From IMG/VR virus record IMGVR_UViG_3300025413_001239: DNA of 64,000 nucleotides. One strand, written 5' to 3'. Made by a program: the position numbers and the translations under genes. The stretch is from a virus (taxonomy: Duplodnaviria; Caudoviricetes). Of this stretch, positions 20,384 through 40,740 are shown one piece after another. Under the pieces are notes generated by a model that worked only from the letters and a program-made list of their open reading frames with translations, ran no database searches and was not told the origin of the DNA. The number at the start of each line of letters is the position of its first letter. Position 1 is the first letter of the stretch.

Positions 20384-20523
20384 TGTGCCGTAGGCCAGAT
20401 GTCCAACGGACGAGTGTGCCGTAGGCCAGATGTCCAACGGACTTGTGTGCCATCGCCATGAAGGCTCTGGACGAGTGTGCCGTAGGCCAGATGTCCAACG
20501 GACGAGTGTACACAAAAGTGTTC
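20384..20523 (+). repeat. Tandem 30-31 bp GC-rich hairpin units ending in a GTACAC-N4-GTGTWC palindrome
   Basis: GTGTGCCGTAGGCCAGATGTCCAACGGACGA x3 plus one variant unit. Confidence 0.9.
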
Positions 20524-20881
20524 ATGAAATTAGAAGTTATGGATAAATATAACAACATAAGACTCTTATTGTAAAAATTACTTAAAATTCCTTAAATTTA
20601 ATTCTATGTGTTCTTAAGTGTACCTAAAACAACCCGTTTACATTATTTGAGTTTTTTTTTGAATTTTTGGTAAAATGTGGTAAAAAGTGGGTAAATGTGG
20701 TAAAATCCAGACGTAAAAAACGGAAAATGGGGTTTTTAAGGCATTTTAAAGAGTTTTTTAAAATATAGCATTTTAGCCATTTTTGAAAAATCATTTTATA
20801 CCACCCACTAAAAATATTTTTTTTCGATATATTACAGGAAATTTTTATACGTCTATATACAGGGCATAAAACCGCTTTTAT

Positions 20882-20970
20882 ATACACAAAAGTGTACATG
20901 AAGTCCAGAGCCTTCATGGCGATGGTACACTCGTCCGTATGTCCTCGTGACTACGGTACATAAAGTCCAC
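20882..20970 (-). repeat. Inverted partner of the 20384 repeat block
   Basis: Reverse complement contains GTGTACCATCGCCATGAAGGCTCTGGAC and the palindrome. Confidence 0.85.
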
Positions 20971-20983
20971 ACACAAGCCTGAA

Positions 20984-20999
20984 TGTTCCACGTGAAACA
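20984..20999. promoter_or_regulatory. parS: Canonical parS centromere site
   Basis: TGTTCCACGTGAAACA matches the TGTTNCACGTGAAACA consensus. Confidence 0.8.
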
Positions 21000-21089
21000 T
21001 AAGATTTTGGCCAGGTTTTTACGGTACCCTTAAAGCTTAAATTTTTCATGTTCAGCCTTAAGAATTGTACCTGAGTACTTGTGGTTTAA

Positions 21090-21353
21090 TTAAACAGTTA
21101 TTTGCGCACTGGATGCGTCATATTTAATTGAACCATATTTACTGTACTGAATTCCAGATTTAAATTCAGGTTCCTTTAACCTAAGAAATTTGTATGCGTC
21201 CCATAGGGCCTTTTTAGCTTCTCTTTTTGTTTTAAATGTTATTGTGTATCCATAGAAGTTATTTCTAGTTGTTACAGAATTATGTGTTTGGATTGCTCTA
21301 CAAAGGGTACTGTTTCCGTTTATTTGACCCGTAATGTTAATAGTTGTTATCAT
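21090..21353 (-). CDS. Hypothetical protein, divergently transcribed
   Basis: ORF facing away from the early block. Confidence 0.65.
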   Translation of the reverse strand: MITTINITGQINGNSTLCRAIQTHNSVTTRNNFYGYTITFKTKREAKKALWDAYKFLRLKEPEFKSGIQYSKYGSIKYDASSAQITV

Positions 21354-21549
21354 ATATAAGTTATTTGATGAGCGGCAAAAGTATATGTATGTAAGTCACC
21401 GTAAAAGATGAATTTGGTTATGTGGTAATCTACTAGTATATTTGCAGTAGTTAAGTGGTTAATTGTTAAGGGTTTACATATAAATAAAATAAAAAAAGTT
21501 TTTGCCATATCAAAAAATACCCTTATCTTTGCATTCTAAATTAACAATT

Positions 21550-22323
21550 ATGGTATTAGAAAATGTTCAAAGTAAAAAAGTTATTAAAACAAGTTATGTT
21601 CGTGGTAAGTATCCTTTATTAACTCAAAACAATTACAAAACAATTAAGGGTGAAAAGTTGGGCATCAAAACACTTATATTGTATCTAAGTCCTTATAAGG
21701 ATAATAGTAAGGGTAAAAACTTATGTCCCAAGGCTAGTTTAGGTTGTAGCAAAGCTTGTTTATTTAATAGTGGTATGGGTGGTATGTATGAGCAAGTTGC
21801 TAATGGTAGACGTAATAAAACAGAATGGTTTCTCGAAGATAGGGAAAGTTTTGTTGGTACGCTTATTGTTGAGATTGCGAAAGCGGTAAAAAAGTATAGT
21901 GCTGATTGGCATTTGAGTATTCGCTTAAATGGTACTAGTGATATTGTTTGGGAAAACATTTATTATGGTGGTAAGAATATTTTCGAGCATTTTCCTGATG
22001 TAGATTTTTATGACTATACTAAAATTAGTAGTAGATTCAAAAAACAACTACCAAAAAATTACCACTTAACTTTTTCAAGGAGTGAAGAAAACGAAAGTGA
22101 AGCTTTAAGCTTATTGCGTAAGGGTTTCAATGTGGCTGCCGTATTCTTAAAAAAACCAACACATTACAAAGGGTTTAAGGTAGTTGATGGCGATTTATCT
22201 GATAACCGTATTGGTGACGAAAAGGGTGTAATTGTAGGTTTATCCTATAAGAACGCTACAGGTAAAAATGGTGGTGAATTAAACCAATATGCGAAGACTA
22301 GTGGGTTTGTAATATTTATTTAA
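21550..22323 (+). CDS. GP88-family radical-SAM-like phage protein (start moved to ATG 21550)
   Basis: CPKASLGCSKAC, IRLNGTSDI, FYDYTK, YHLTFS and DGDLSD motifs. Confidence 0.75.
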   Translation: MVLENVQSKKVIKTSYVRGKYPLLTQNNYKTIKGEKLGIKTLILYLSPYKDNSKGKNLCPKASLGCSKACLFNSGMGGMYEQVANGRRNKTEWFLEDRESFVGTLIVEIAKAVKKYSADWHLSIRLNGTSDIVWENIYYGGKNIFEHFPDVDFYDYTKISSRFKKQLPKNYHLTFSRSEENESEALSLLRKGFNVAAVFLKKPTHYKGFKVVDGDLSDNRIGDEKGVIVGLSYKNATGKNGGELNQYAKTSGFVIFI

Positions 22324-22382
22324 AAATAAATTTTGTTAGTAATAAAAATAGGCTTATATTTGCATAAATAAAAATAATAATT

Positions 22383-23273
22383 ATGGATATTAAACAACAA
22401 GCACAAGACATTTTAAGTAAACATGGATTAGATTTTACAATTAGTAAATTACCATTAATAGCTATTGATGAAGGTGGTAATCAGTTGATAACACCTTATT
22501 ATGGTTTAGTCAATTCGAGTAATAACGAATGCATCAATACTTGCCGAGAAGGTTATACCATATCCCAAAACAGTGATGTTATTGAGATGGTGTTAACGGG
22601 TATGCAAAAGTTTGGTGATGAGTTAACAGTTAGCAAGGCTGGGTCAATTAATAACGGACGAAGGGTATTTGTGCAGTTGGAAGTTAAGGGCTTAAAAAAG
22701 ATTGGTAATGATACCATGAAGCAGTTTGTTACTGTTATTGATAGTAACGATGGTAGTACAGGTCTTAGTGTGGGTATATCAGATATTCAAGCACATTGTA
22801 CTAATCAGTTTTTCAGATTCTACAAAAAGGGTAATTCAAGGTTCAGGCATACTGCAACTATTACTCAAAAGATTCAAGAGATTCCTAGTTTAATTGAAAC
22901 AGCTCTGAATGAAAACCTAAGGCAGGTTCGTACATACGAGCGTTTCTTAAGTACTGAATTAAGTAAGAACTTAGCTGATAAGATGGTTAAGGAAGTGTTA
23001 GGTTATGATAGGGTGTTTACGAGCTTAGAAGACTTCGCAAAGATGACTAATCGTTCAACTGATATGATGGATACGCTTTATAACAATATTCAACATGAAT
23101 TTGGTGAGGTTGGTGAAAACTTATTTGGTTTGTTTAATGGTGTAACTAGATACACTACTTATCATCAAAGTACCCCTAAGCGTTTTAATGGGCATGATGA
23201 AAGTCTCATTGTTGGTTCTGGCTATAAGAAAGCCTTAACAGCTTATGACCTTTGTCTAGCTGAAATAAGCTAA
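22383..23273 (+). CDS. DUF932-family (phage/plasmid TIGR03299-like) protein, copy 1
   Basis: YTISQN, GSINNGRRVFV, DSNDGS, CTNQ, LFGLFNGVT.Y motifs. Confidence 0.75.
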   Translation: MDIKQQAQDILSKHGLDFTISKLPLIAIDEGGNQLITPYYGLVNSSNNECINTCREGYTISQNSDVIEMVLTGMQKFGDELTVSKAGSINNGRRVFVQLEVKGLKKIGNDTMKQFVTVIDSNDGSTGLSVGISDIQAHCTNQFFRFYKKGNSRFRHTATITQKIQEIPSLIETALNENLRQVRTYERFLSTELSKNLADKMVKEVLGYDRVFTSLEDFAKMTNRSTDMMDTLYNNIQHEFGEVGENLFGLFNGVTRYTTYHQSTPKRFNGHDESLIVGSGYKKALTAYDLCLAEIS

Positions 23274-23278
23274 AATAC

Positions 23279-23320
23279 TTATCCACACTTAGCTTCGGTT
23301 GAGTGTGGATAACTTTTTTT
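23279..23320 (+). terminator. Terminator whose stem is formed by two inverted perfect DnaA boxes
   Basis: TTATCCACA-CTTAGC-TTCG-GTTGAG-TGTGGATAA followed by a T-run. Confidence 0.75.
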
Positions 23321-23324
23321 ATAC

Positions 23325-23400
23325 ATGGGTAAAAAAGTAACGGGTAGGTCGGAGTATACCCCCGATGTCGTTTAGAACTATCGTCTTGTCTCAATGACAC
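23325..23400 (-). ncRNA. Candidate small RNA, copy 1 (ends approximate)
   Basis: TATCTTTG promoter at 23403-23410; body conserved with 39061-39120; no ORF. Confidence 0.55.
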
Positions 23401-23807
23401 TGCAAAGATAAGGGTTTCGTTTCATATAAAAAAACTTTTTTTATTTTTGTTTATGTGAAAATATAGTATTATATTTGCATCACAATAAAATTAAGTAGTT
23501 ATGAAAGTTGCAAAATTAGTAAGAGTGTCATTAGTTTGTCGTGTAATTTGTGAGGATACAGCTAGTAAACAGGATATTTTGGAATTGGCTATTCCTAAGT
23601 TAAGTGAAGCACTTATGGATAATCCGTATGAATCGGTTGAAGAAATTCTTGATGATACAGAATGTCCTTTTGATTTATCAACTGATGATTAAAAATAAAT
23701 TTTTTTATGTGGAGATATACTAGTATATTTGCAGTATATTTGCAGTATAAAATTTATTATTAACAATTAAACAACGAAGATGTCCCCGTTCAAAGGGCAT
23801 GTAGCTT

Positions 23808-24344
23808 ATCGGACAATATTTCAAAGCGTGTACATTAGGCGCAAATGGTAAAACAGTTAACAAGTGGGTTTATTCGTGGGATTTCAATAATGGGCTTAAA
23901 TTAATGGAACATTCATTTATTGGCAATCCGTTTGTTTCAGCGGTTGAAAGTCTTATATGGAATAAGCCTGAACGTTTGGTATGGGCTGGTGATTATGCAG
24001 ATAAGTGTAAGCAACGTAAAAGTAATGTGTATGACCGTTGCACTGACAAAAACCAAGTTAAGCCTATTGCGATGGTATCTACAAAGGAAAGCAGGTTTAT
24101 TATAAACCATACTAAGGGCTTGTATGTGGATAAAAATAAAGTACCTAAAGACAAATCTCATTGGGGTTTGCAATTACATCCTTTGCCATTACTAACTTGT
24201 GAGGGCAATTTAAGAGGTGGGGGTAGTTTTAGTGGTGCTAAAGGTGCTGAATTTGTTGGTACATGGGCAAGAGATTTAATTTCAGTTAGTTCAAAAAAAC
24301 CTATTGGATTTAAGGAAATTACACCTAACTTTAGTGAAGGTTAA
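23808..24344 (+). CDS. Conserved phage protein; frame extends upstream of ATG 23904 to an ATC codon
   Basis: (I)GQYFKACTLG...NGLKLMEHSFIGNPFV...VWAGDYAD. Confidence 0.6.
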   Translation: MGQYFKACTLGANGKTVNKWVYSWDFNNGLKLMEHSFIGNPFVSAVESLIWNKPERLVWAGDYADKCKQRKSNVYDRCTDKNQVKPIAMVSTKESRFIINHTKGLYVDKNKVPKDKSHWGLQLHPLPLLTCEGNLRGGGSFSGAKGAEFVGTWARDLISVSSKKPIGFKEITPNFSEG

Positions 24345-24537
24345 TAGATTATTGGATAACCTTATTTTATATAAGGTTATCCTTTTTGATATATCTATTA
24401 GTATGTGAACATAATGGTTTTAATTTGCGTAAAGTGGTTTATTCAAATTATCACGATTGTCATAAGATACCTAAGCGTATTGATGAAGATGACGAAGATG
24501 TTAAAGAAGTGTTGGTTATCAGTTAAATTAAATGAGA

Positions 24538-24890
24538 TGAATGTAGAAAAAATGTCAAGGTTTGATGTAATCCATAAGTTATTTCAATTGGATTTAGTAA
24601 ATGGGGATACTAACGGTTGTGTATCCTATAGTGAGTTTAAGAATCGTGCTAGTATTATGAGGTACGGGAAACAAAACAAAAATCAATTGAAGATTGTTTT
24701 TGTTGGGTTTCCTAAGGAGAATTTATTTGGATTCTATGTTCAATGTGATACTGACCCAAAGTGTATGAAACAAGCTTATGAGTGGTATTGCAAGTTAATT
24801 AAGGGTAAATTAGATTTTGACGATGTGGATATTCACTTTGGTAATTGTGGGTTTCCAATCACTTATGGTTATATTCGTTATATTGAATAA
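24538..24890 (+). CDS. Hypothetical protein (start approximate)
   Basis: 3' part of ORF 24405-24890. Confidence 0.5.
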
Positions 24891-24992
24891 TTATCACGTT
24901 TTATATCTCTATTAATTTTTGAACATAAAGGTTGAAGGTTAGTCGTATCAAAAAATACTAGTATATTTGCATCATAATTAAAAGTTTAACAA

Positions 24993-25550
24993 ATGAAAAA
25001 ATTTAATGTTACTTCGGGAGTTCTTGTTGCTTCTGACCCATGTTACACGATTAACCCACCAACATGGTATCAAGGCATCATTGAGAATGTCAAAAACGGT
25101 GAGTGGATTGCTACCGTTGAAGAATACGGTGAGCGTATTGCTGAATTGTTTATATCGCATAAGGATACGCATTTGACCTTATCTGATATGTTTGTTGATG
25201 AAGTTGAATTTCCCTTTGCAGCTGCTGTTGATAGTGGGCAATTTGGCTTTTTTGATAAGGCAGGTTATCGTCAAGACTTATTGGCTAATGGTTTACCTAA
25301 GGCTGATTTTGGTGATGGTTACGATAGAGAAGAAGGCGACCTATGGTATCGTGCTGTTTGTGATTTGACTTTAGGTGATGAAGGTTGGGGTGTATTGCCT
25401 GACGGTGTTGCTTCAAGTTCTGGCTTTGGTGATGGTCGTTATACCGTATATGGTGTTAAGGATGGCAATGGTGAATGGGTTGGCTTACGGGTTGTCTTTA
25501 TCAATTTGGAAACAGATAAAGAAGACGAAGACGAAGACGATGAGTTATAA
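24993..25550 (+). CDS. DUF4241-like acidic protein
   Basis: LVASDPCY, AVDSGQFGFFD and SSGFGDGRY motifs. Confidence 0.6.
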   Translation: MKKFNVTSGVLVASDPCYTINPPTWYQGIIENVKNGEWIATVEEYGERIAELFISHKDTHLTLSDMFVDEVEFPFAAAVDSGQFGFFDKAGYRQDLLANGLPKADFGDGYDREEGDLWYRAVCDLTLGDEGWGVLPDGVASSSGFGDGRYTVYGVKDGNGEWVGLRVVFINLETDKEDEDEDDEL

Positions 25551-25589
25551 AAAAGATTTGGGGGTATAGAAATATACCCCTATATGGGT

Positions 25590-25655
25590 ATGTACACAAA
25601 AGTGTACTATACGTCACGAGGACGTTCGGACGAGTGTACTATACGTCACGAGGGC
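25590..25655 (+). repeat. Palindrome plus hairpin-unit repeat (same family as 20384)
   Basis: GTACACAAAAGTGTAC, then GTGTACTATACGTCACGAGG twice. Confidence 0.85.
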
Positions 25656-25711
25656 AAAATAAATTTGGTAGTTTGGAGATATAGCCTTATATTTGCATCA
25701 AATTAAAAGTT

Positions 25712-26886
25712 ATGAAGAAATTACAGTTTATTGTTACATTAGAGTTTGCTGATAAGATAAGCGATGATAATGAAATTATTGAAGTTGCTAAAAATATCGC
25801 TAGAGCGATTAAGAATGAAGTAAACCACGGTGAAGGTATTGCTCCTGACGATAGTGATTCGTATACTTTAGGCGGTGAAGTTAAGCCTCAATTTATTGAC
25901 GAGTTTGCACCTATTACAATTTAAATTAGGTTAAGTCCTTAAATACTAGTATATTTGCATTCTAAATTACGAAGCATGGCAAAGTTTTTTGTTGTTGATG
26001 GTTATTGGAAAGATGATAAGTCTTCCATTAATGGTTATATTGTTACTGATATGGATAGCAGTGTCGGTTACCCTGTTAATGGCTTAACAGATGAAGATAT
26101 ATTCTTTTATGGTTTAAATGAACTGGAGATTCAAGAAGCTATTGAGTTGGGTGAAGATACCGTTCAAGATTTTGTTATTACAACATATAGAGAATATTAA
26201 ATTTGGTGGTATCGAAAGATACTAGTATATTTGCATCAAATAAAACTTATAAATTATGACTTATATTGTAACTGATATTGAGTATGATACTGATGGTGAA
26301 GATGTTGATTTACCTGAAACGCTTAGTATAGATGTTCCTGATGAAATTGATAACGAGGATGAAATTTTAGATTATATTACTGATAAAATAAGTGATATAA
26401 CAGAATTTTGTACACTTGGTTTTATATTTGAAAAACACTAAAAATTTACAGATTATGCAATTGTATGGGGTTAAATTAAACGATGGTCACAAGGCAAGAG
26501 TTGACCAACAATTTGAGGGTTACTTAGGTAGCGGTTACATTGAATTTTACACTAGGGGTGAAGCCATAAAGAAGGCTAAAGCCTTCGGTGGTTCAATTAA
26601 ACCAATGGGTAAAAACTATACTGTTAAGTCCTTAACGGTTTTGCAGTTATCCAAAAAGGATATACATAAAGTAATTGTACAAAAACTTAAAGGCTTAGAA
26701 GCTTTTATAGATACAGAAGAAATTGATGAGCCTTTATATCAAGGCGATATATTCGAGCAAATTATTGGTGAGGTTTCAGAAATTACAAAAATGAAAGGTA
26801 CAACTTTTCCACCAAACTTTGAAATGGAGTTAAAAGTCTTAAATACGTTATGTTTCAATGCTGATTATATAATGTTAGTAGATTAA
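25712..26886 (+). CDS. Four small acidic hypothetical proteins (25712-25924, ~25975-26200, 26256-26441, ~26455-26886)
   Basis: Three are preceded by their own promoter. Confidence 0.6.
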
Positions 26887-26955
26887 AAATAAATTTGCTA
26901 ATTCAAAATATAGTCGTATATTTGCATCATTATTAACATCTAAAAATTTACAATT

Positions 26956-27222
26956 ATGGGAATGGTTAAAAGACAAAAGCACACTTTGTTATTGGGTGAG
27001 GGTATTCACCAACACACTTTGTATGGTAACATTGAAGTTGAGGAAGAACGTAAGGACTTTTCAAAAGTTGTTGTTACAAGTGATGGAGTGTTAAGGCACG
27101 AAAAACCTAATGGTTCATTTGGTGAGCATAAAACTTTACAAGTTGAAAAGGGTAAATGGGTTCAAGGTAAGCAAGTTGAATACAATCCATTTAAGCAATC
27201 CGTATCACAAGTGTTTGATTAA
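26956..27222 (+). CDS. Small His-rich (cupin-like) phage protein
   Basis: GEGIHQH...LRHE...EHKTL...QVEYNP. Confidence 0.6.
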   Translation: MGMVKRQKHTLLLGEGIHQHTLYGNIEVEEERKDFSKVVVTSDGVLRHEKPNGSFGEHKTLQVEKGKWVQGKQVEYNPFKQSVSQVFD

Positions 27223-27316
27223 AATGAAAAGGGTAAATTAATTTTTACCCTTTTTTTGTTTATATCAAAAATAGTCTTATATTTGCACCAATATTAACAA
27301 TTTAAAAATTACAGTT

Positions 27317-27709
27317 ATGAACCCATTAGTCCATTCAAAGAGTTCAGTTAAACGTTGGGGTGGTAAAGTTGAAGATTACTTACCTATTCACATTTTACTT
27401 GATAGCCCAAAAGAAACTATGAATAACAATACAAGTAGATGCTTAACACATAATACTTGGTTTTGTTACCATATCATACCTAAGATATTTGGTTACAATA
27501 TAACCAATTCCGATGGTCGTAGTATTGATACTGTTGATATTGCTATGTTACATTGCTGCGAAGATTTTCGTTTTCGTTTCGTTCCTACACCACAAGACTA
27601 TTTGAAACACATGACTGTTGAAGCGTGGATGTGTAATGGAGTAAAGGATGTAGAAAATCCCGAAAGCATACAAGCAGCTAAGGATTTTTTAGAGAAAATC
27701 AGACAATAA
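27317..27709 (+). CDS. DUF6915-like protein
   Basis: PLVHSKSSVKRWGGKVEDYLPIH motif (family assignment from memory). Confidence 0.55.
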   Translation: MNPLVHSKSSVKRWGGKVEDYLPIHILLDSPKETMNNNTSRCLTHNTWFCYHIIPKIFGYNITNSDGRSIDTVDIAMLHCCEDFRFRFVPTPQDYLKHMTVEAWMCNGVKDVENPESIQAAKDFLEKIRQ

Positions 27710-27800
27710 ATTTGGTAGGTAAGTAATTTACCCTTACATTTGCACTCTATTAATAAATATCGGGATATTCCGAAAAAGTCATCTAATAAAATTTAAAGTT

Positions 27801-28457
27801 ATGGAACTAAAAGAAGCGTTACAAAGGTTTAAGGACTTAAACTTAGAGAAAGCAGTATTAACCTTTGATTGTGGTGGTGATAGTATGGGTGATACTAGTT
27901 GGGAGTTATTATTAGCTGATGGTGAAGCAGTTAAGGACGATGATTTGGAAAGTTACTTTGACGATGAAGTTTATAGGGAAGTAGAGTTCTATGTTAATTC
28001 CGATGGGTATTACAACGGTGAAGCAGGTACTGTTGAGGTTACTATTGAAACTGACGGTGAGGATGATGAATTTTTCAGTTATTATAAGGATGCTATGAGT
28101 GAGTTTACAGAGCAAACCACTAACATCATTGAGGTTAAATTAACGCCCGAAATGTTAGCTTTCATTTCTGAAAATGTATCAAACATTAATGGTGATGATA
28201 GTGGCTTTACTATCAATTACAAAAAAGACTTGCTTTTGACTGATGAACAAGAAACGCTTGTTGATGAGATTGAAAACTTGTTACAAAAGGAGTGTGAAGA
28301 ATATGAGCCTGAAATGGAAGGTGATGATTGCACACTTGAAGATTGGTTTAGTTATACCACAAATTCGGATAATGACGAATTAACTGAATTAACTATTAAA
28401 GACGATAACCTTTTGGTTATCCTTACTAATAGTTTCCAAACATTTAGTGAAAGTTAG
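27801..28457 (+). CDS. DUF6878-like acidic protein
   Basis: FDCGGDSMG...YNGEAGTV pattern (family assignment from memory). Confidence 0.5.
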   Translation: MELKEALQRFKDLNLEKAVLTFDCGGDSMGDTSWELLLADGEAVKDDDLESYFDDEVYREVEFYVNSDGYYNGEAGTVEVTIETDGEDDEFFSYYKDAMSEFTEQTTNIIEVKLTPEMLAFISENVSNINGDDSGFTINYKKDLLLTDEQETLVDEIENLLQKECEEYEPEMEGDDCTLEDWFSYTTNSDNDELTELTIKDDNLLVILTNSFQTFSES

Positions 28458-28527
28458 GAAAAAGATTTGGGGGTATAGAAATATACCCCTATATTTGCAT
28501 TATTAAATAACACATAAAATACAGATT

Positions 28528-29235
28528 ATGGCGAAAATTATTGTTGAAAATTACAAGTTCGATTTTGACTTGGGTTGCAGGCTTTTAAAGTTAAAGCACA
28601 CAGAATGTCCTTTTGTTCAGTTGGAAGATTTTTGGGATGAAATTAAGCCCTTAACTTTCAAGGAGATTGCACAGCTTGAAAACTTGGAGATGCGAAGGAT
28701 TGGTATTGTATGCTTGGGATTGGAAAGGCTTGTTGCAGAAGTTAATCCAAACAGATTAAGTGAGGAAACGCTTATCAAAAAAACTACTTGGATTGGTGAG
28801 GATGGTGGTTTAATTGAACACACATTTGAAGATACCTACGAATTGTTTGAGGTTGATGGGGAATACTTTAATAATGGTTTAACCGATTGGCGTAAGATGG
28901 GTAACTGTTACTTTGTTAAGTTCAAGGATACTTCAACCGATAGGGTTTATATGATTTGGGTTAATTTGTCAAGTGTTTGGAGTACAAACAATAAGCCAAA
29001 GGCTAATAGACAAAATTGGTTTATTGAAGAAGTTCATAAGCGAGAAATTTCACCTATTGATTGTATTGCTTGGACTTTGCAAACGAATGTTGCGAAGGGT
29101 AACATTGAGAAGATTATTAGACAAGGTGATTGCATTTTGGTTAAGCCAAAACACGCAAAGGATGTTACTGACGATAGCCCTGTTAGGCACTTAACAAGTG
29201 AAGAATACAGAAACTTGTTAGTTGCAGAAAGCTAG
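28528..29235 (+). CDS. Conserved phage hypothetical protein
   Basis: LEMRRIGI, DTSTDRVY and IIRQGD motifs. Confidence 0.65.
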   Translation: MAKIIVENYKFDFDLGCRLLKLKHTECPFVQLEDFWDEIKPLTFKEIAQLENLEMRRIGIVCLGLERLVAEVNPNRLSEETLIKKTTWIGEDGGLIEHTFEDTYELFEVDGEYFNNGLTDWRKMGNCYFVKFKDTSTDRVYMIWVNLSSVWSTNNKPKANRQNWFIEEVHKREISPIDCIAWTLQTNVAKGNIEKIIRQGDCILVKPKHAKDVTDDSPVRHLTSEEYRNLLVAES

Positions 29236-31789: not shown

Positions 31790-31791
31790 AG

Positions 31792-31962
31792 TTATAGTGG
31801 TATTTCAGTTATGTGTTTATTTTTAAATAAGTCTTTAGCGATTAAGTTTTCGATATACTTAGATTTGTTATTATATAGTTCATCAACTTTTTGCATTATT
31901 AATGGGTTAATTGAAACTGTTACAGTAACCTTTTTTTCCTTTTCATCTAGTTTTTTTCTCAT
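31792..31962 (-). CDS. Small ribbon-helix-helix-like protein (56 aa)
   Basis: KKVTVTVSINP...NKSKYIENLI; ATATTTAT motif upstream. Confidence 0.55.
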   Translation of the reverse strand: MRKKLDEKEKKVTVTVSINPLIMQKVDELYNNKSKYIENLIAKDLFKNKHITEIPL

Positions 31963-32097
31963 AGTGTTCTTTATTATAAATATATTAAAACATAAGAAAA
32001 AGTCAAGAAAAAAATAAGAATTTTAAAAAATAAATTTGGCGGTATAAAAAATAGCCGTACATTTGCATCATTATTAACAATTTAAAGATTTAAAAAA

Positions 32098-32922
32098 ATG
32101 GAACAAGTATTAGAAATTAAGGAGTTTACAAAAGACCTTTTAGGTGACACAGCCACTGTAAGGGCTAATTCAACTAGGGGTGAAGAAGTTATTAAAATTG
32201 CACTTGACAAAATTGTTGTTAGGGATAATTTTAACGTTAGGCAAAATTATGGTAACTTGGAAGAATTAGCTTACTCAATGATTGAGAATGGTCAAGTAAT
32301 GCCTGGTCATGTTGATGTTCTTGCCGATGGTCGTTTCGTTTTAACTGATGGACACAGAAGGTTTAAAGCCTTAAAACTATTGGCTGAAATGGGTCACGAA
32401 CCTTTATTTAAGGCGATTGTGAACCCTAAAAAAATGACAGAAGAGCAAAGGATTCTTCAAGTATTTACTACGCAAGATAACAAGCCTTTAGAACCAAACG
32501 AAGTTGCGGAACTAATTAACCGTTTAATTAATTTGGGGTACAAACAAACCGATGTTGCGAAACGTATTGGGCGTACAGGTGCATACGTTTCACAGATGCT
32601 TAACTATGTTACTGAAAGTCCTTTGATTAAAGAAGAAGTTAAAGAAGGCAATATTACAGTTGCAGCTGTTTTGGATTTGCAAAAGAAGATACCCAATAAA
32701 GAAGAAAGGGTTAAGGCAGTTAAGGATGCTGTTGCAAAGAAAAAAGAAGAAACGAAAGACGATAAGAAACCAACGCCAGTTTCAGCAAATGAAGTAATTG
32801 GTAAAAAAGATAAGGGTGCTATTGCTTTTGAGATTGTGTGTTTAATTGAACAGGCTTATAGCGAAGAACTTGAAGGTGCTGATTTGAAAATGATGGTTAG
32901 CATTATTAAGGGTTATCTTTAA
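32098..32922 (+). CDS. parB: ParB/Spo0J-like protein
   Basis: NVRQ, LEELAYSM, TDGHRRFKA CTPase motif; HTH KQTDVAKRIGRTGAYVSQML. Confidence 0.85.
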   Translation: MEQVLEIKEFTKDLLGDTATVRANSTRGEEVIKIALDKIVVRDNFNVRQNYGNLEELAYSMIENGQVMPGHVDVLADGRFVLTDGHRRFKALKLLAEMGHEPLFKAIVNPKKMTEEQRILQVFTTQDNKPLEPNEVAELINRLINLGYKQTDVAKRIGRTGAYVSQMLNYVTESPLIKEEVKEGNITVAAVLDLQKKIPNKEERVKAVKDAVAKKKEETKDDKKPTPVSANEVIGKKDKGAIAFEIVCLIEQAYSEELEGADLKMMVSIIKGYL

Positions 32923-33066
32923 TGGTTTAATTGAATAGGTTAAAGTGGGATAGTAGAAATACTATCCCATTTTTATTTTAAGAACTTAATAAAAATAAAT
33001 TTGCTCATATCAAATATACTAGTATATTTGCATTCTAATTAATTAACAATCTAAAAATTACAGATT

Positions 33067-33918
33067 ATGACAAAGGTACACGAAAGTTTTAAGTTAGTTT
33101 CTAAGGCTATTAGCCACAAAGGGGAATCAGGTATTAAGGTAGAAATTCCTGCTATCTACGAAACTACAAATGAAGATGTGATTAAATTCAGTCACGTTAA
33201 CAGGTTAACTAAAATCAATGGAATTATTACTTTGGGTAATAGTCTTATTGAACTAGCCCACAATCTTAGGGATATAGTTGTTGCTAAGATTGGTGATGAT
33301 TTTTACTACATTGATGGACAGCATTTGGCTAAAGCCTTATTCAAATTGGGGTTGCCAATAAGGTTTAAATTGGTTTATTTAAACGATGAAGAAGAAGCCC
33401 TTAAATTCATTACTAAAATGAATAGTAGTGCTAGAAATTGGTCTTTGAAGCAGTACATTGAAAGTTATTCAAAGGTTAATAAAGACTTGGTTTATTTAAA
33501 CGAGTTAAATGCTCAAACAAGTGTTAGTTATAGTACATTAGGTATTGTGCTAACTAATCAATCAATGTCCTATGTTAAGAAATCAATAAAGGATGGTACT
33601 TTCAAAATAACCGAAAAGAAGGCAGCAAAAATAAGAGTTGATGTTGTGATTAACTTTTATCAAATTACGGGTGTAAAGGTATCTCAATATTGCACTCACG
33701 GACTAATTGACTTTATTAAGAACTTACCAAACGGCTTGAATGATTACTTAGCTAATGAAGGTAGATTTTTAGCTGTTGTGGAATGTGGTAAAATCGTGCC
33801 AAAAGTACCACTAGGGCAACGTGAAACCTATGTCGAATTATTTTCAAAGTGTTGGAATAAAAGCAAAGGTGGTAAATTTAAAGCCTTAAAAGAAAGGTTG
33901 GCAGAAATGGAAAATTAA
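33067..33918 (+). CDS. ParB/Srx-fold (DGQH-type) protein
   Basis: YYIDGQHLAKAL; MNSSARNWSL. Confidence 0.6.
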   Translation: MTKVHESFKLVSKAISHKGESGIKVEIPAIYETTNEDVIKFSHVNRLTKINGIITLGNSLIELAHNLRDIVVAKIGDDFYYIDGQHLAKALFKLGLPIRFKLVYLNDEEEALKFITKMNSSARNWSLKQYIESYSKVNKDLVYLNELNAQTSVSYSTLGIVLTNQSMSYVKKSIKDGTFKITEKKAAKIRVDVVINFYQITGVKVSQYCTHGLIDFIKNLPNGLNDYLANEGRFLAVVECGKIVPKVPLGQRETYVELFSKCWNKSKGGKFKALKERLAEMEN

Positions 33919-35552
33919 TGGTTTAAATAAATGGGAAAGCCTAAAAAACTTTCCCATTTTTATAAAATAAATTTGCTCATATCAAATATACTAGTATATT
34001 TGCATTCTAATTACTTAACAATCTAAAAATTACAGATTATGACAATTTACGAACAAACGAAAAAAGATGCTTTAGAATTTATTCAGAATGGTGGTAAAGC
34101 ACAACAAGCTACTAATGAAAATCAAAGATTGGTTGCTGAGAATATTTTAGATTTTCTAAGGTTTAATGGCTTAAATGTTGTATTAGTGGCTGATGGTTGT
34201 GTTATTGATATTCACGTTCAAGTTTATAACGCATTTCAAGATTCAAAGCATAATGGGGTCGTGAGGGTATTCTACAAGTCTGCTAGTGATGTTATAAAAA
34301 ATAATAAGGTGCAGTATTTACCTTCGTTAATTACTAATAGTATTGTAGGTTATACAAGAGAATGGAAAGACTTTAACGGCAATGATGAGTTATTGGGTTT
34401 AATTAAACAAGAAATATTTGAGGTCTATAAATACAAAATTAAAAAATAAATTTGCTCATATCAAAAATACTCATATCTTTGCATCACAATAAAACAGAAT
34501 ATATGTTAAGTAGTTTAATCAAAAGAAATGCAGGTTCAAATGAACCAAAGTCGTTAAGGGTTGGTAATAGTACTTTTCCCGAAAATCAACCTAGCTTAAA
34601 TGAATCATTAAAGATTGGTAAAACTGTATTACCCAACAACCAACCTAGTTTAAATGAATGGTGTAAAGAATTTAAAGTCTCTAGTCGTGTTCCAAAATAT
34701 TCGCAATTTTCACATCACGGTTAATATAACTGCATAACGGTTGAAGATTGGTGTAATGGTTAAGAAAACTGAAAGGGGTTACCGAAAGGTAACTCTTTTT
34801 AGTTTAATTAAACAGGTAAAAATAAATTTGTTTATATCAAATTAAGTCCTTAACTTTGCAGTAAATAAAACAGATTATGATAGAAACACTTTTAACTTTC
34901 TTTTTGATGGGTATGGTTTATATAAATGGGGTTAAGCCATTACAAGGCTTTAAGGATAAGCCTTTCAGCGAAAAAAGACGCATTGTCTTGTCATTAAGAG
35001 ATATGGATTAAAAATAAATTTGGCTGAATCAAATTAAGTCCTTAACTTTGCAGTAAATAAAACATACAGAATATGGCTAAGAAACTTGTTAGACTTACAA
35101 CCCATCAAATAATTGATGAAACGGTTGCGTTTTACGAAAAAAATATTCGAGCAAAACAAGACAATTGGTGCGAGTATCTAACTGATGATGGTAGAATGTG
35201 TGCCGTTGGTAGATGCTTAACCCCTAAGAGTTTGCAGATAGCCCAAACAGAATTTGGAGGTAAGGACTTTGGTAGCTTAAACTTGAATAGGATTAAGTTT
35301 AAGGCTCAATATACAGGTAAATGTGACGACTTTTGGTCATCACTACAAAGCCTACACGATAGCGAGAAATATTGGAATGGTAACCATTTAAGTTATATGG
35401 GTGAAATTAAGGTTAAAGCCTTAAAAGAACGATTTGCAAATATTTAATCAAAAATGCTTGTATATGAATAAAACAATTTGGATTGGTATATCAATTATTG
35501 TTTCAGTTGAATTAATTGGTATTCTTATGGGTTTAATTAAACTAATAAACTA

Positions 35553-35690
35553 ATGAAAATTTTAATGTGTTTGGCACTAGTAGTGCTGTTAACAAGTTGT
35601 TCATTCAAGAACTTACACCGAGTACATAAGGGAGATAAGATATATCGCCCACCTTGTAATTGTGGTCCACACTTTGGTCCGTTTAATTAA
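35553..35690 (+). CDS. Small lipoprotein (45 aa)
   Basis: MKILMCLALVVLLTSC lipobox. Confidence 0.55.
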   Translation: MKILMCLALVVLLTSCSFKNLHRVHKGDKIYRPPCNCGPHFGPFN

Positions 35691-35753
35691 ACAGGTAAAA
35701 ATAAATTTGGTTGATTGAAATTAATTCCTTAATTTTGTTGAAAATTACAGATT

Positions 35754-36062
35754 ATGATTAAAGCAATTAAGATTGATGTTCAGAACAGAACAGTTACTGA
35801 GGTTGAAATTCAAAACAACTTGGAAGCCTATTATAAGGAGATAGGCTGCGATTTAGTTGAGTTTGTTAAGGTCGATGAGGTTAACGACCTTATGGTTGAT
35901 GAAGAGGGTTTATTCACAAAGAATCCATTCTTTATAATGGAAGGCTTATATCAACCAATGAGAGGCAACGGCTTAATAGTTGGGGTTGATTTTGAAGAGG
36001 GTGAAACCATAAGCACAACCCTTACAGTAGATGAAGTAAAAGCAAGAGTACACTTTGTATAG
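35754..36062 (+). CDS. DUF3846-like protein
   Basis: IGCDLVE...MVDEEGL...GNGLIVG. Confidence 0.65.
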   Translation: MIKAIKIDVQNRTVTEVEIQNNLEAYYKEIGCDLVEFVKVDEVNDLMVDEEGLFTKNPFFIMEGLYQPMRGNGLIVGVDFEEGETISTTLTVDEVKARVHFV

Positions 36063-36114
36063 ACACTTTTGTACTTTTTTGATTTTTCGTTATATTTATT
36101 AATAAATAGATATA

Positions 36115-36759
36115 ATGAAAAATCAAAAATTAACAAGTGAAGAACGCAAAGCAAAAAAAATTGAAGCTAATAAAGCTTATCGAGAAGCTAATAAAATTAA
36201 ATTAACCGAAACAAATAAAGCAAAATACGAAGCTAATAAGGTTAAGATAGCTGAAAGAGCTAAAATTTATTATGAAGCTAATAAAGCTAAGATAATTGAA
36301 AAAAAACAATTATATATCCAACTTAATAAAGAAACTATTGCAGCTAAGAAAAAAGCTTATTATGAAGCTAATAAAGAAAAGTTAAATAAATTAACTAGAG
36401 ATTGGGTTAAAAATAAATTAGCTACCGACCCTTTATATAAATTGAAAGCGAATATAAGAACTTTAGTCGGGAACTCTATTCGTAGAAACGGTTATAAAAA
36501 GTTAAGTAAAACCCATTTAATTTTAGGTTGCACATTTGAACAATTCAAAGAACATTTAGAGTCACAATTTGAGCCGTGGATGAATTGGAATAACCGTGGG
36601 TTATATAATGGTACTGAAAATTATGGTTGGGATATTGACCACATTATACCAGTATCTAGCGGCTTAACTGAACAAGAAGTGGTTCAATTAAACCATTATA
36701 CCAACTTAAAACCTCTATGTAGTTATATAAACCGTGACGTTAAAATAAATAAGGTATAA
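36115..36759 (+). CDS. HNH homing endonuclease, paralog of 31076-31789
   Basis: EANK repeats; LGCTFEQFKEHLE...WDIDHIIP...LNHYTNLKPL. Confidence 0.85.
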   Translation: MKNQKLTSEERKAKKIEANKAYREANKIKLTETNKAKYEANKVKIAERAKIYYEANKAKIIEKKQLYIQLNKETIAAKKKAYYEANKEKLNKLTRDWVKNKLATDPLYKLKANIRTLVGNSIRRNGYKKLSKTHLILGCTFEQFKEHLESQFEPWMNWNNRGLYNGTENYGWDIDHIIPVSSGLTEQEVVQLNHYTNLKPLCSYINRDVKINKV

Positions 36760-36994
36760 CATACACTTTTGTGTACACAAGGACGTTCGGTGCATTGAAT
36801 ACAAATAACCCCCAACCGATTTGATTGGGGGTTTATTTAAACCTATTAAGGTTCATTCATAAAGTCAGAAATGTTTAATGGTTCAATCAATTCCTCGCAT
36901 TGAATGAACAAGTCAAAATCATCATAATCCAAAAGCATAGCTGTTTATTTAAACGTAAAAAAATAGGGGTGCGATTGCTCACACCCCAGAGTTA

Positions 36995-37255
36995 TTATTT
37001 GATGGCTGCTTTCAATTCAGCCTTTAATCTCTTAGCATCTTCGCCCTTGAAGGTTGAAGCATTACCTAAGAAATAAATTACAATGCTTTCAGCTGTATCA
37101 TAGCCATAAGCATCGTTTTTGTCTTGTAGGGTGCATAAAGCATCTAAATAAGGCTTTGCACCAAAGTAAACCTTTGCACCCCAAACACGCTTAATTTCAC
37201 GTCCTATAACACATAAAGAACGAAAGTTAACTACTGCATTTTTTGTCTTTGTCAT
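36995..37255 (-). CDS. Conserved phage protein (start moved to ATG 37255)
   Basis: FGAKPYLDAL...YFLGNASTFKGEDAKRLKAELK. Confidence 0.7.
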   Translation of the reverse strand: MTKTKNAVVNFRSLCVIGREIKRVWGAKVYFGAKPYLDALCTLQDKNDAYGYDTAESIVIYFLGNASTFKGEDAKRLKAELKAAIK

Positions 37256-37433
37256 AAACTGTAATTTTATTAAGTGATTAAGAAATTTCAGCAAAGATAA
37301 GTAGTTTATTTAAACCAACAAATTTATTTTATCCCTTTTTATAAACCTATTAACATAACTACAATAAGGGCGTATATTTATACGATTTTTTAAAAAGTTT
37401 TTGTTTATGTTATTTTACACCCTTATCTTTGCA

Positions 37434-37500
37434 ATGTTATTATAACAGGACGACATAAAAAATCGGGAGGTGTACTCCACTATGCGCTTTATTTTTATAT
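37434..37500 (+). ncRNA. Candidate small RNA, copy 3 (ends approximate)
   Basis: Promoter TATCTTTG at 37424; ACAGGACGA...ATCGGGAGGTGTACTCC core. Confidence 0.5.
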
Positions 37501-37667
37501 AACCATACATACGTTGGAATTTACAATATTATTCTAATACCGCCAAATAAAGTTATCCCCAAAATGATTTTTAAAATGTGGATAACTTTATTGCAGTTTA
37601 TTTAAACCATAACCTATCTTTGCTGAAATTTATTAACCGCTTCGAGAGAAGCACAATATTACAGATT

Positions 37668-38534
37668 ATGAAATATGTTAATTTAAAAGGTCAAAAATTA
37701 CAAAATGATGACGTGTTCCCAACAGTAGAAATTAAGTCATTTAGCGAGGCAATTAACCTCAAAACTAGGAAAGGTTATGATAATTTAGTTATCAGTAACG
37801 GCGAAGTAGTTAACGTTTGTAGTGATAGTTATGCACTACTTAAAAATGAAGACTTTTTTTTAAAGGTAGAAGAAAAGTTAATTGTTGACGCTGATGTAGA
37901 ATACACTAAAAGGAGTATAAACCGAAATAACCGTTCTTTTGCGGTTGATTACATTTTAAATGACGATAGGTATGATATTGTAATTAATAGCGGCAAAAAG
38001 GACGTTATTAAACCAATGCTTCGCTTTGTTAACTCTTATGATGGTAGTGCCAAAACAAAGGGTTCTTTTGGGTATTTTAGACAAGTTTGCACTAATGGTT
38101 TACACATTGCTGAAACAATGTTAAACTTTGATGTTAAACATAGGGGTGCAATAGCTGAAATAGTTCTCCCTAAGATGGATAACCTAATTTCAAATTTTAT
38201 GGAAAACGAATACTACACGTTAAAAAGTAAAGCTGAAACCCTTACAAATAGCAAAATTAGTGATGTAGCTAAATTTGTACAGGATATTTGTAAAAAAACC
38301 AATATCTTTAAATTTGAAAAAAGCGAAAAGAACCCCGAACCTTCAAAGTACGCTGAACAGGTAATAAACACAATTTTTAGTGAGGCAAATTACCTAAACG
38401 TTGTACCTAATTTGTGGCTGGGTTATAACTCATTTAATTCAATCCTTACCGATGGAACGTTTAGCAAAACATTCGAGAAAGAAACCGAATTTGATAACCT
38501 TATATTCAATAGGGTGCTTGAAATGGCAGGTTAA
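37668..38534 (+). CDS. DUF932-family protein, copy 2 (start ATG 37668)
   Basis: YALLKNEDFF, VNSYDGS, RQVCTNGL, LWLGYNSFN motifs. Confidence 0.75.
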   Translation: MKYVNLKGQKLQNDDVFPTVEIKSFSEAINLKTRKGYDNLVISNGEVVNVCSDSYALLKNEDFFLKVEEKLIVDADVEYTKRSINRNNRSFAVDYILNDDRYDIVINSGKKDVIKPMLRFVNSYDGSAKTKGSFGYFRQVCTNGLHIAETMLNFDVKHRGAIAEIVLPKMDNLISNFMENEYYTLKSKAETLTNSKISDVAKFVQDICKKTNIFKFEKSEKNPEPSKYAEQVINTIFSEANYLNVVPNLWLGYNSFNSILTDGTFSKTFEKETEFDNLIFNRVLEMAG

Positions 38535-38839
38535 GTACTTAACCGCTTAAAAGTAAGGGTAACAGAAATGTTACCCTTTTTTTATGCCCTTAACTATCCA
38601 TGTACACTAATGTGTACCATACGTGTGAAAATAGCCGTTTTTAGCCCATTTTGAGCCGTTTATTACCAAAATAAGGTAATCATATTAACAGCTTTATTTT
38701 AAGCCAAATTTGAGCCTTAAAATCAATTCTTTGATTACAATAAACCTATTTTTGCACAATAAAGCTATTAACTTTATTATAAGCCTATTAACTTTATTAA
38801 CCACTTAACAAAACATAAAAAAATCTTATGTTAGTAAAA

Positions 38840-39189
38840 TGTGGATAATTTTTAGATGTTAATAACTATGTGGATAAAATGTGGATAAGTACTTAGTAAC
38901 ATTTGTGGATAACTTATGTGGATAAAATGTGAATAACTTTTTTACTTATCCACATTTGTTAATAACGTATGCGGATAAAATGTGGATAACTTTTTTTGGT
39001 GGTATGAAAAAAAAGTTGTACCTTGCATCCGCATAGGCACATATATAAAAAAATAAAAGGCAGGTCGGAGTACACCTCCCGATGTCCTTTAGAACTATCG
39101 TCTTGTTATATTAACACTGCAAAGATATAGCAGCAAAATGACATGGACAAAAAAAGTTATCCACATAAGTAAAATAAAAATGTGGATAA
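38840..39189. promoter_or_regulatory. Dense DnaA-box cluster (oriC-like)
   Basis: Perfect TTATCCACA/TGTGGATAA at 38840, 38869, 38880, 38904, 38917, 38946, 38981, 39157, 39181; TGTGAATAA at 38928; near-matches at 38857, 38957, 38970. Confidence 0.88.
39045..39117 (-). ncRNA. Candidate small RNA, copy 2 (ends approximate)
   Basis: Full TTTG-N20-TATCTTTG promoter; conserved body; ends in a T-run; no ORF. Confidence 0.55.
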
Positions 39190-39276
39190 CTTTATCTTGT
39201 TTAATTAAACCAATATCAAAAATTTACCCTATCTTTGCAGTCTTATTAACCGCCGAAAGGCACTAAATTACAGATT

Positions 39277-39864
39277 ATGAATACAGTTGAAACGGTACAA
39301 ACTACTGAAATTGCAGTAAGCGAAGTAGCTGCAAAAGTGATTAACTTAGCTAAATTAGCTATCCAAAAATCGCCAACAGGTGTTAGTTTTGTTAGTATTA
39401 GGAATTATACTAATCAATACGGCGAAATTTCAAACCAAACAATTAATTTAGGCGAAAGCTATGAGAAAGCTAAATTAAGGGATATTGAAACGCTTGAAGG
39501 CTTGGACATTACCAATGCTGAATATGGCTTTAAAAGTAGTGTTTTAATGCTTGAAAAAGCAAGGGTTGAATTAATTGAGGCTTTTATTAAGCCAAACGAA
39601 ACCCGCTCAAAAGGGCAAACAGAAGCCTATACAAACATCTGTAAAGGTATAAGAGTGCATAACCAAACGGGATTGCTTTATTTATACGGCTATCGTATAA
39701 ATAAGAGTGTTTTGCAAAGTGGTACATACCCAACTAAAAATAGTAAGGAATTAACCATAGCGAAGGATGAATTAAGAAAGCTATTAAAGACAAATAAATT
39801 TGTAAACTTCTCTTTACAGGTCGGCAATGAATTAAGAATGGCTGGGGATACTTTAGAATTGTAG
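39277..39864 (+). CDS. Conserved phage hypothetical protein
   Basis: Own promoter; leader with GCC-GAAA-GGC hairpin and TTACAGATTATG. Confidence 0.7.
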   Translation: MNTVETVQTTEIAVSEVAAKVINLAKLAIQKSPTGVSFVSIRNYTNQYGEISNQTINLGESYEKAKLRDIETLEGLDITNAEYGFKSSVLMLEKARVELIEAFIKPNETRSKGQTEAYTNICKGIRVHNQTGLLYLYGYRINKSVLQSGTYPTKNSKELTIAKDELRKLLKTNKFVNFSLQVGNELRMAGDTLEL

Positions 39865-39983
39865 TAAAAAAATAAGGTGGGTTAAATAGTGCTATGTCTA
39901 TTGATAACAATAGAGATTTTTAGACTTAAATGGGCTGCAATACAATTTTGCAGCCCACTTTTTTAATAACTAAATTTTATAGT

Positions 39984-40229
39984 ATGAGAAATTTTAAAGT
40001 AGTTGATGGGGATGTTGATTTTGAAGTAGTCGAAAGGGTAATCAAAGGTCGTTTTACCAAAAAAAGGTTTAAGACGATACATAGAGCCGCAAGGGAAAGA
40101 TTAGGCGGCAAAGTGCCTTATTGTGGCTGCGTTTATGATTGTTGCGGCTGTTTAAGCAGCAAAGGCGTATCTTTCGACTTTCGTAATGGCGCACTTGTTA
40201 TTCAAGCATCAAGATATTACAACTACTAA
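39984..40229 (+). CDS. Small Cys-rich protein
   Basis: YCGCVYDCCGC motif. Confidence 0.6.
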   Translation: MRNFKVVDGDVDFEVVERVIKGRFTKKRFKTIHRAARERLGGKVPYCGCVYDCCGCLSSKGVSFDFRNGALVIQASRYYNY

Positions 40230-40283
40230 ACTTAAAGGGCTGCATCCTTGCAGCCCACTTTTTTAACCACTTAAATAAAAAAA

Positions 40284-40424
40284 ATGAAAAAAATACTTCT
40301 TGCCTTATTGCTTATTGGATTTCTATCTAGTTGCAGTTATAGTGAGTACCAATGTGCTGCCCACTACAAAGTAACCGACTATTATAGTGGTCGGATTACT
40401 CCGAGATGGAAACTAGCCCACTAA
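40284..40424 (+). CDS. Small lipoprotein (46 aa)
   Basis: MKKILLALLLIGFLSSC lipobox. Confidence 0.6.
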   Translation: MKKILLALLLIGFLSSCSYSEYQCAAHYKVTDYYSGRITPRWKLAH

Positions 40425-40559
40425 AAATACCCTAAAAAACAGCTAAAAAGCCCAAAATTGGGCTTTTTTTATGCCCGTAAGGTAATCGTATCAAAAACAA
40501 CCAAACAGGCTAAAACAGGCTTAAAATGGCTATTTTAAGCTATATGACTATACGGCAGT

Positions 40560-40608
40560 CCCCCCTCCCGTCAAGGTGACAGTACCCCCTACCCGTAACC
40601 CCCCTCCC
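40560..40608 (-). other. G-quadruplex-capable motif
   Basis: Six C-tracts of 3-6 nt on the + strand within 49 bp. Confidence 0.55.
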
Positions 40609-40740
40609 GTATGACAGATTGGCATAGCCATATGGGGGTGGCGATACTGTGTTCAAAATTTTTTTTTCATTTTCGGGGTCAAATAATAACTAATCTGAAA
40701 TTTTTGGTTTTTAATAAAATGAAAGTCATTTTAAAAAATT

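Follow-up and report, generated by a model that had tools for sequence, protein, structure and literature searches.

Host-type parS and DnaA-box arrays in an early-type region of a jumbo phage: candidate docking sites for host ParB and DnaA

The parS site and the DnaA box are two address labels of the bacterial chromosome origin region, and the closest described counterparts of the arrangement reported here are origin-proximal composites of both in bacterial chromosomes (the ParABS centromere; DnaA-box clusters, for example the DBCs of Bacillus subtilis and datA of Escherichia coli). The nearest phage case is the injection stop region of T5-like phages, an untranslated part of a proven terminal repeat that contains eight DnaA boxes, with pairs 3 bp apart; the region has been called oriC-like, and a role of its boxes in injection is a proposal (bioRxiv 10.1101/866236). 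Mobile elements are known to make orphan ParB-like regulators early, including KorB of RK2 and HerB/YfjB in the leading region of F (bioRxiv 10.64898/2026.07.07.736705). Here we describe a 64-kb stretch of viral DNA (the window; bases 5870–69869 of the 148.7-kb IMG/VR record IMGVR_UViG_3300025413_001239) in which the same 16-bp parS and the same 9-bp DnaA box are found in a gene block at 20.4–40.7 kb. The record has 30% GC and an estimated completeness of 44% (CheckV). Because contigs of up to 343 kb encode an identical DUF932 protein (gene 1 below), we take it to come from a jumbo phage with a genome of ~340 kb. Our literature searches returned no report of a phage that carries its host's own parS, or of parS joined to DnaA-box arrays.

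The early-type region of this phage contains conserved signals that resemble those of a host origin. Specifically, a perfect chromosomal-type parS, TGTTCCACGTGAAACA, is located at 20984–20999 and agrees at every base with the 16-bp palindrome TGTTNCACGTGAAACA. It is the sole match in the record, and the identical 16-mer is present exactly once in each of two Bacteroidota chromosomes. The perfect DnaA box, TTATCCACA, occurs 15 times in the window, compared with 0.79 expected, a count that 0 of 100 shuffles reached. The record as a whole holds 16 such boxes, 12 of them within 23279–39189, and nine are packed into 350 bp (38840–39189). An array at 38840–38989 contains seven perfect boxes and one variant (TTATTCACA), most of them facing the same way and one perfect box lying on the opposite strand, with start-to-start spacings of 11, 11, 13, 18, 24, 29 and 35 bp. 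Two marks of oriC regions are found in this array, a cluster of boxes and same-strand boxes in helical phase (the 11-, 11- and 13-bp spacings). At least 120 bacterial genomes, Chryseosolibacter and Alistipes among them, have a perfect DnaA box no more than 30 bp from a parS, and since this neighbourhood is common in bacterial chromosomes, the phage cassette appears to copy a natural chromosomal arrangement. The phages resemble the bacterial composites in having a single parS per genome, like the two Bacteroidota chromosomes, and, in the relatives described below, in placing it 7–30 bp from a box. They differ in that their sites lie inside an early-gene region with no canonical ParB, ParA or DnaA alongside, and in that small-RNA promoters point at the arrays and box-built hairpins lie on their flanks.

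The boxes are part of non-coding cassettes next to two DUF932 genes. The preliminary description of this DNA had proposed that the order DUF932 gene, DnaA boxes and oppositely directed small RNA occurs twice, and both instances were recovered. In the first, DUF932 gene 1 (22383–23273, plus strand) is followed by an inverted pair of perfect boxes (pair 1; starts 23279 and 23304, spanning 23279–23312) that faces small RNA unit A. This pair can form a 15-bp hairpin followed by a run of T (−22 kcal/mol, z −7.6), and it is likely to terminate transcription from both sides, that of DUF932 gene 1 and that of small RNA A. In the second, DUF932 gene 2 (37668–38534, plus strand) is followed by the array, which faces small RNA unit C. 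The proximal part of this cassette (38555–38835), homologous to stretches that occur in relative L048 and twice in relative L051, carries in order a terminator hairpin (38555–38578), the palindrome GTACAC-N4-GTGTAC (38602), a conserved AGCC/T-tract motif (38631) and an AT-rich tract (38690–38835; 23% GC vs. 30% for the genome) with a duplicated 19-mer. The box array, small RNA C with its terminator and promoter, inverted perfect box pair 2 (39157–39189; hairpin z −7.0), a further promoter and a conserved 195-aa gene without assigned function (39277–39864, plus strand) then follow.

Three small RNAs are predicted in connection with these boxes. Unit A (23320–23450, minus strand) has its promoter at ~23403–23450, 90 bp beyond the box-pair hairpin, and its RNA (~23396–23320) would run toward pair 1. 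Unit C (38996–39150, minus strand; promoter ~39120–39150) would send its RNA (~39113–38996) into the array and has its own terminator. Unit B (37400–37595, plus strand; promoter 37400–37431, RNA start ~37438) precedes DUF932 gene 2, and the 3' end of its RNA is a hairpin holding a DnaA box (37577–37585) and a degenerate partner. The predicted RNAs share two hairpins, one at the 5' end that is supported by compensatory changes and a second, short one; they also have in common a single-stranded stretch that is conserved. Their whole folds were not stabler than those of shuffled sequences (z −0.4 to +0.6), and a 126-nt form of unit C gave z −2.1. An Rfam search of the small RNAs yielded no family at the gathering threshold or at E ≤ 1, and no complementary target for the conserved stretch, AAGACGATAG, was found in the record.

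Two repeat and A-tract zones had been proposed to bound the block, with parS at one end and the DnaA-box cluster near the other. Our results agree with this layout: both zones are gene-free, rich in repeats and conserved in relatives (the left in L057, the right in L048), parS lies in the left one and the nine clustered boxes lie toward the right one. The left zone (20369–21089) contains four GC-rich 31-bp tandem repeats (20384–20509) with an inverted copy (20903–20960), a palindrome of the type TACAC-N4-GTGTA at 20883 and an AT-rich core of 10-bp repeats (20668–20706). Its repeat family and layout are shared by L057, where they lie between a MORN array and a GP88 gene. Within this core and at L057:5035–5080, three or four repeats of TGTGGTAAA / AGTGGGTAA, phased at 10–11 bp, stand beside parS; two bases off the DnaA box, they could be weak DnaA sites. 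The right zone (40425–40740), homologous to L048:15360–15620, combines an AGCC/A-tract motif with a C-rich and then G-rich element (40556–40650) that has 60% GC in a 30% GC genome and is kept at L048:15500–15620. Several independent contigs end at 40556–40568. The palindrome TACAC-N4-GTGTA occurs five times in the record, compared with 0.17 expected; all five copies (20883, 25593, 30034, 36762 and 38603) are intergenic and lie in the block. L048, L049 and L051 retain this palindrome, which is often fused to a GC-rich repeat, ACACTCGTCCG.

A ParB-like protein encoded in the block (32098–32922, plus strand) has 81 homologues, and the contigs with the closest of them (80%, 73% and 69% identity) keep the gene order of this phage. 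The shared order starts with the MORN array, the gene-free zone, GP88, DUF932, many small genes and ParB, and continues with small genes, an RNA, DUF932, the cassette, the 195-aa gene and PcfJ. L048 and L051 share the order within the cassette, whereas L049 shows a portion of it, the palindrome and the inverted box pair. In L048, a perfect 16-bp parS directly 3' of DUF932 gene 2 stands seven bases from a DnaA box and is followed by the small RNA and the inverted box pair. In L051 the cassette is duplicated and has 20 perfect boxes, with a perfect parS and a near-parS among them. The distance from parS to a DnaA box in these two relatives is 7–10 bp, and the location of their parS differs from that in this phage. 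L049 has a box-pair terminator and an RNA after DUF932 gene 1, and three boxes beyond the 195-aa gene. In all three relatives (L048, L049 and L051), an equivalent of small RNA unit B lies upstream of DUF932 gene 2 and box pair 2 is found at the equivalent place. DnaA boxes are also present in L315, the sole relative added, among the matches listed, by a metagenome scan with the AGCC motif that otherwise gave mostly chance matches. Because gene order, cassette and zones are conserved in relatives, we suggest that these elements are under selection and travel together. In four of the five longer contigs (L053, L054, L056 and L048), the gene for the ParB homologue lies 4–8 kb from a contig end; in many phages the ParB region may be near the genome end, or near repeats that break assemblies.

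To evaluate which proteins could read these sites, we examined the two ParB-like proteins of the block. The first, divergent protein (32098–32922; GHRRF motif) scores above the cut-off for HTH_ParB (28.7 bits; cut-off 22.6) and KorB (26.7; 22.3) and below it for ParB_N (17.2; 26.3) and TIGR00180 (49.7; 58.45). The second (33067–33918, plus strand) matches the family phrog_12305 and has a DGQH motif. The family of the first protein was aligned with Spo0J of Thermus and with the ParBs of the two Bacteroidota genomes that hold the single identical parS, and compared at the residues that contact parS (R173, N178, G201 and R204 in Caulobacter numbering; PMC7383237). In the alignment, the phage family has a glycine in place of the parS-specific arginine and a glutamine in place of the conserved asparagine, and the GHAR segment is deleted; the glutamine of the helix-turn-helix (HTH) is retained. 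Both Bacteroidota ParBs retain the parS-contact residues. The motifs for binding cytidine triphosphate (CTP) are also altered in the phage protein, with GERR changed to GHRR and the ENLQR box to QD--NK with a two-residue gap. Within the record, which covers 44% of the genome, there was no match to PF13614 as a ParA partner and no DnaA family match. Since the record encodes neither DnaA nor ParA, and the phage ParB is devoid of the parS-reading residues, host ParB and host DnaA are the likely binders of the phage sites. This ParB-like protein resembles KorB and HerB in having an HTH, in being early (judged by promoter type) and in having no ParA beside it, and its neighbours DUF932, DUF3846 (within the block) and PcfJ (just outside it) recall plasmid leading regions. 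It is unlike KorB in that the similarity is weak (KorB E 5e-6), and in the altered CTP motifs described above.

A combination of parS and boxes was also seen in eight small IMG/VR contigs of 42–46% GC (L160, L161, L164, L167, L168, L170, L173 and L178), each with two parS matches and 5–7 perfect DnaA boxes. Either bacterial origin regions have been misclassified here as viral, or a different mobile element may share this combination of sites; both are possibilities.

Promoters of Bacteroidota are of the −33 TTTG / −7 TAnnTTTG type. Repeat analysis revealed a sequence of 45–80 nt common to upstream regions, with the consensus AAAATAAATTTG-N19/20-TAtaTTTGCA. A strict promoter (TTTG-N19/20-TAnnTTTG) was found within 130 bp upstream of 18 of the 36 block genes (20.4–40.7 kb), and for the −7 motif by itself the figure is 24 of the 36; about one host-type promoter per gene, as the preliminary description had it, is thus roughly right. 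In the distal 80 kb of the record promoters precede 2 of 87 genes, and the enrichment in the block is ~20-fold. This enrichment in host-type (Bacteroidota sigma-A) promoters fits the block being the core of an early region transcribed by host RNA polymerase, a timing that we read from promoter type alone. The same description had also treated the 20 kb as a self-contained unit, and here our results disagree: the syntenic stretch begins at the MORN array and reaches PcfJ, and promoters exceed both ends. Specifically, 24 of the 34 plus-strand promoter sites in the window, with the extended shared consensus, fall in 21.4–38.3 kb, and sites of the same type spread over 9.7–49 kb, giving the block no sharp edge. 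The promoter type, together with comparisons of DUF932 and ClpB, supports a Bacteroidota host: the protein of DUF932 gene 2 shares 50% identity with DUF932 of Flavobacterium psychrophilum phages, and the phage ClpB is ~50% identical to Bacteroidota proteins.

The early promoters sort into classes with perfect palindromes within or over the spacer. One class, GGGGTATAG-AAA-TATACCCC, has three copies (25561–25580, 28470–28489 and 29248–29267), and another, the 20-bp CAAATATACTAGTATATTTG, has two (33011–33030 and 33983–34002), which lie in a pair of 82-bp promoter regions with 99% identity. L049 and L051 also have similar palindromes. These sequences look like operators for phage regulators.

We tentatively favour, at somewhat less than even likelihood, that the parS and DnaA-box sites are cis-acting docking sites for host DnaA and host ParB. 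On this proposal, non-coding cassettes in the early region would display two origin-region signals, a host-type parS and consensus DnaA-box arrays next to AT-rich DNA, where short RNAs would be transcribed into the arrays from their own promoters and inverted boxes would form the flanking hairpin terminators, so that incoming phage DNA would resemble origin-proximal chromosome to the host. Host DnaA could then assemble on the phage DNA and bring about local opening, first rounds of replication or DnaA-gated transcription, and host ParB could load and bring in SMC and ParA, so that the phage DNA would be compacted, positioned or distributed. Docking in cis is favoured because a single parS and a single array suffice for a partition complex and a DnaA oligomer, and because the close linkage among boxes, parS, AT-rich tract and promoters that point inward suggests local assembly. 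The single parS per genome, which matches the two Bacteroidota chromosomes, and the existence of phages with a homologous ParB and no parS speak for the same proposal. A centromere served by another replicon has a precedent, as the island SGI1 reportedly hijacks the parABS system of IncC plasmids; the phage would be like SGI1 in being a mobile element with a foreign-served centromere, and unlike it in pairing a phage with a chromosome and not an island with a helper plasmid. If host ParB and DnaA do load, this would be a new viral way to use or disturb the start of host replication and chromosome segregation. It would also help to understand how the genomes of very large phages are positioned and maintained in environmental bacteria that grow slowly. 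The finding adds a second, independent case to the proposal made for T5 that DnaA boxes in first-entering DNA matter.

A stronger form of this proposal is that cassette and parS constitute a minimal replicon and centromere served by the host, giving a jumbo phage of lytic type, with no initiator or ParA of its own, a chromosome-mimicking carrier state. If true, host DnaA would copy the phage and host ParABS/SMC would segregate it in dividing Bacteroidota cells. Such an element would resemble an oriC minichromosome carrying parS and served wholly by host proteins. As in P1 oriR and oriC minichromosomes, AT-rich DNA adjoins the box cluster and transcription flanks it; unlike in P1 oriR-type origins, there is no Rep gene or iteron at the array, and the array is missing in distant relatives. 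We consider the carrier state quite unlikely.

Several observations weigh against docking in cis and call for caution. A failure of the elements to co-occur in relatives had been named beforehand as a result that would refute the idea. For close relatives the idea passes, since the elements occur together in L048 and L051; no perfect boxes or parS were found within 10 kb in L053–L056 (ParB 55–66% identical) or in the jumbo phages L419 and L420 (195-aa gene 55% identical). In place of perfect boxes, an RNA-like unit in L419 is followed by TTATTAACA/TTATCAACA variants, and variants of the TTATTAACA type replace some boxes at equivalent places, so that selection may act partly on the hairpins. 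The number of boxes ranges from 3 to 20 among close relatives, and this variation, together with the dispensability of the element in distant relatives, makes an essential origin less likely and keeps a sink or transcription control in consideration. Inspection by eye revealed no motif resembling a DnaA-trio next to the array, and the 20-mer formed by two boxes at 11-bp spacing was not found in five Bacteroidota genomes. The record being 44% of the genome, a phage DnaA or ParA could also lie elsewhere. Apart from these points, the exact double-box 20-mer is present in 43 IMG/VR contigs, adjoining ERF, RusA, integrase or ribonucleotide reductase (RNR) genes, and DnaA-box arrays in phages are not rare. 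A general tie between DUF932 and DnaA boxes was considered and rejected, as Flavobacterium phage 6H has no DnaA boxes near its DUF932 gene.

The same sites could instead act in trans as a decoy, the multiplying phage copies titrating host DnaA and ParB, blocking host replication and disturbing segregation. Extra copies of datA or of DnaA-box clusters are known to delay initiation in E. coli and B. subtilis, and high-affinity consensus boxes, a free number of them (3–20) and the duplication of the cassette suit a dosage element better than a precise origin; the element is also dispensable in distant relatives. However, one entering genome would bring 10–20 boxes and one parS to compete with the sites of the host itself, which makes for weak early jamming, and the host is already lost once the phage copies have become numerous. 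The tight pairing of parS, boxes and promoters also points to local assembly, and on these grounds we regard a sink as unlikely. Another alternative is control of transcription alone: the box pairs would be intrinsic terminators, the arrays DnaA roadblocks or operators and parS a separate matter, with the small RNAs and neighbouring early genes gated by the DnaA state of the host. Box-bound DnaA can block RNA polymerase and regulate promoters such as those of dnaA and mioC. Strong box-pair hairpins with runs of T lie exactly between convergent units, each array is faced by a promoter, and the hairpin is retained where the boxes are variant. Yet terminators do not require perfect 9-mers, seven same-facing boxes in 150 bp are not hairpins, and parS among the boxes of two relatives would be left unexplained; we regard this explanation, too, as unlikely.

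Two further alternatives would turn on how the genome enters the cell or ends. The zones could halt or anchor DNA that is injected in steps, once the first-expressed genes are in, as proposed for T5-like phages, which have paired boxes in inverted repeats at the untranslated far end of the genes transferred in the first step (bioRxiv 10.1101/866236). The locus described here is like that region in being non-coding, rich in repeats, inverted repeats and palindromes, in pairing consensus with variant (TTATTAACA-type) boxes and in adjoining (pre-)early genes with host promoters, and a run of such genes, all in one direction, has the array close to its distal end. It is unlike T5, which has no parS, in having 3–20 boxes at 11–13-bp spacing or in hairpin pairs, along with parS and small RNAs. 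The role of the boxes in T5 is itself a proposal, host-type promoters go on to ~49 kb here, the terminal position of the block is assumed, and a box pair also lies 3' of DUF932 gene 1, 2 kb into the block, all of which leaves an entry pause with little likelihood. Alternatively, the 20.4–40.7-kb block could be a long terminal repeat that the assembler collapsed to a single copy, and independent assemblies do often break in both zones (20480–20833 and 40556–40874). But local repeats within the zones account for these breaks, and assemblies also break at internal repeats (~25.4–25.6 and 36.3–36.5 kb; duplicated promoter and HNH sequences). IMG/VR found no end repeats, the block is spanned by contigs of ~149 kb, DUF932 gene 1 is present on contigs of up to 343 kb and no second copy or alternative junction was seen; we hold a collapsed repeat to be highly improbable.

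With regard to the remaining gene content, both DUF932 genes match PF06067 (cut-off 23 bits), gene 1 with 61.1 bits and an additional match to TIGR03299, and gene 2 with 51.9 bits. The structure model of the gene 1 protein (predicted local distance difference test, pLDDT, 81) had no clear counterpart among solved folds. The best VIA-align hit, a generic alpha/beta domain with Z 7.9, was within the chance range and was rejected as a fold identity, Foldseek gave no match at E ≤ 0.001, and neither a PDB sequence search nor PADLOC returned a match. A GP88-family gene (PF17338, E 1e-42) at 21502–22323 (plus strand) is syntenic in L049 and L057. Near-identical DNA was not found in phage or plasmid collections, single-protein IMG/VR scans with DUF932 gene 2, ParB and the 195-aa protein revealed no near relatives, and a scan of the genome contigs collection with DUF932 gene 2 gave no match. 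A tRNA search found none, and PolB and a DnaB-type helicase were not detected in the record, which is uninformative for a 44% fragment.

Outside the block, the window starts with a fragment of a leucyl-tRNA synthetase gene, and 54666–55937 (minus strand), 60301–62724 (plus) and 8380–9612 (plus) hold intein-containing genes for ClpB-D2 and thymidylate synthase and a gene for a TnpB/Cas12f-like protein. The thymidylate synthase gene contains a LAGLIDADG endonuclease. In L060 (PLXT01000052.1, 103 kb), labelled as a Methanobacterium metagenome-assembled genome (MAG), no ParB homologue was found, and a ClpB-like protein is 70% identical to the phage ClpB, compared with ~50% for Bacteroidota; the contig probably belongs to a related phage and was placed in an archaeal MAG by binning. 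An open reading frame of 46 codons (40284–40424), immediately ahead of the right non-coding zone, opens with a typical lipoprotein signal, MKKILLALLLIGFLSSC. Finally, two paralogous genes in inverted orientation (31076–31789, minus strand, and 36115–36759, plus strand) share 74–83% DNA identity over ~370 bp and encode lysine-rich 15-residue repeats with an HNH-like C-terminus. Several assemblies break there, and relatives have DUF723 genes at similar places.

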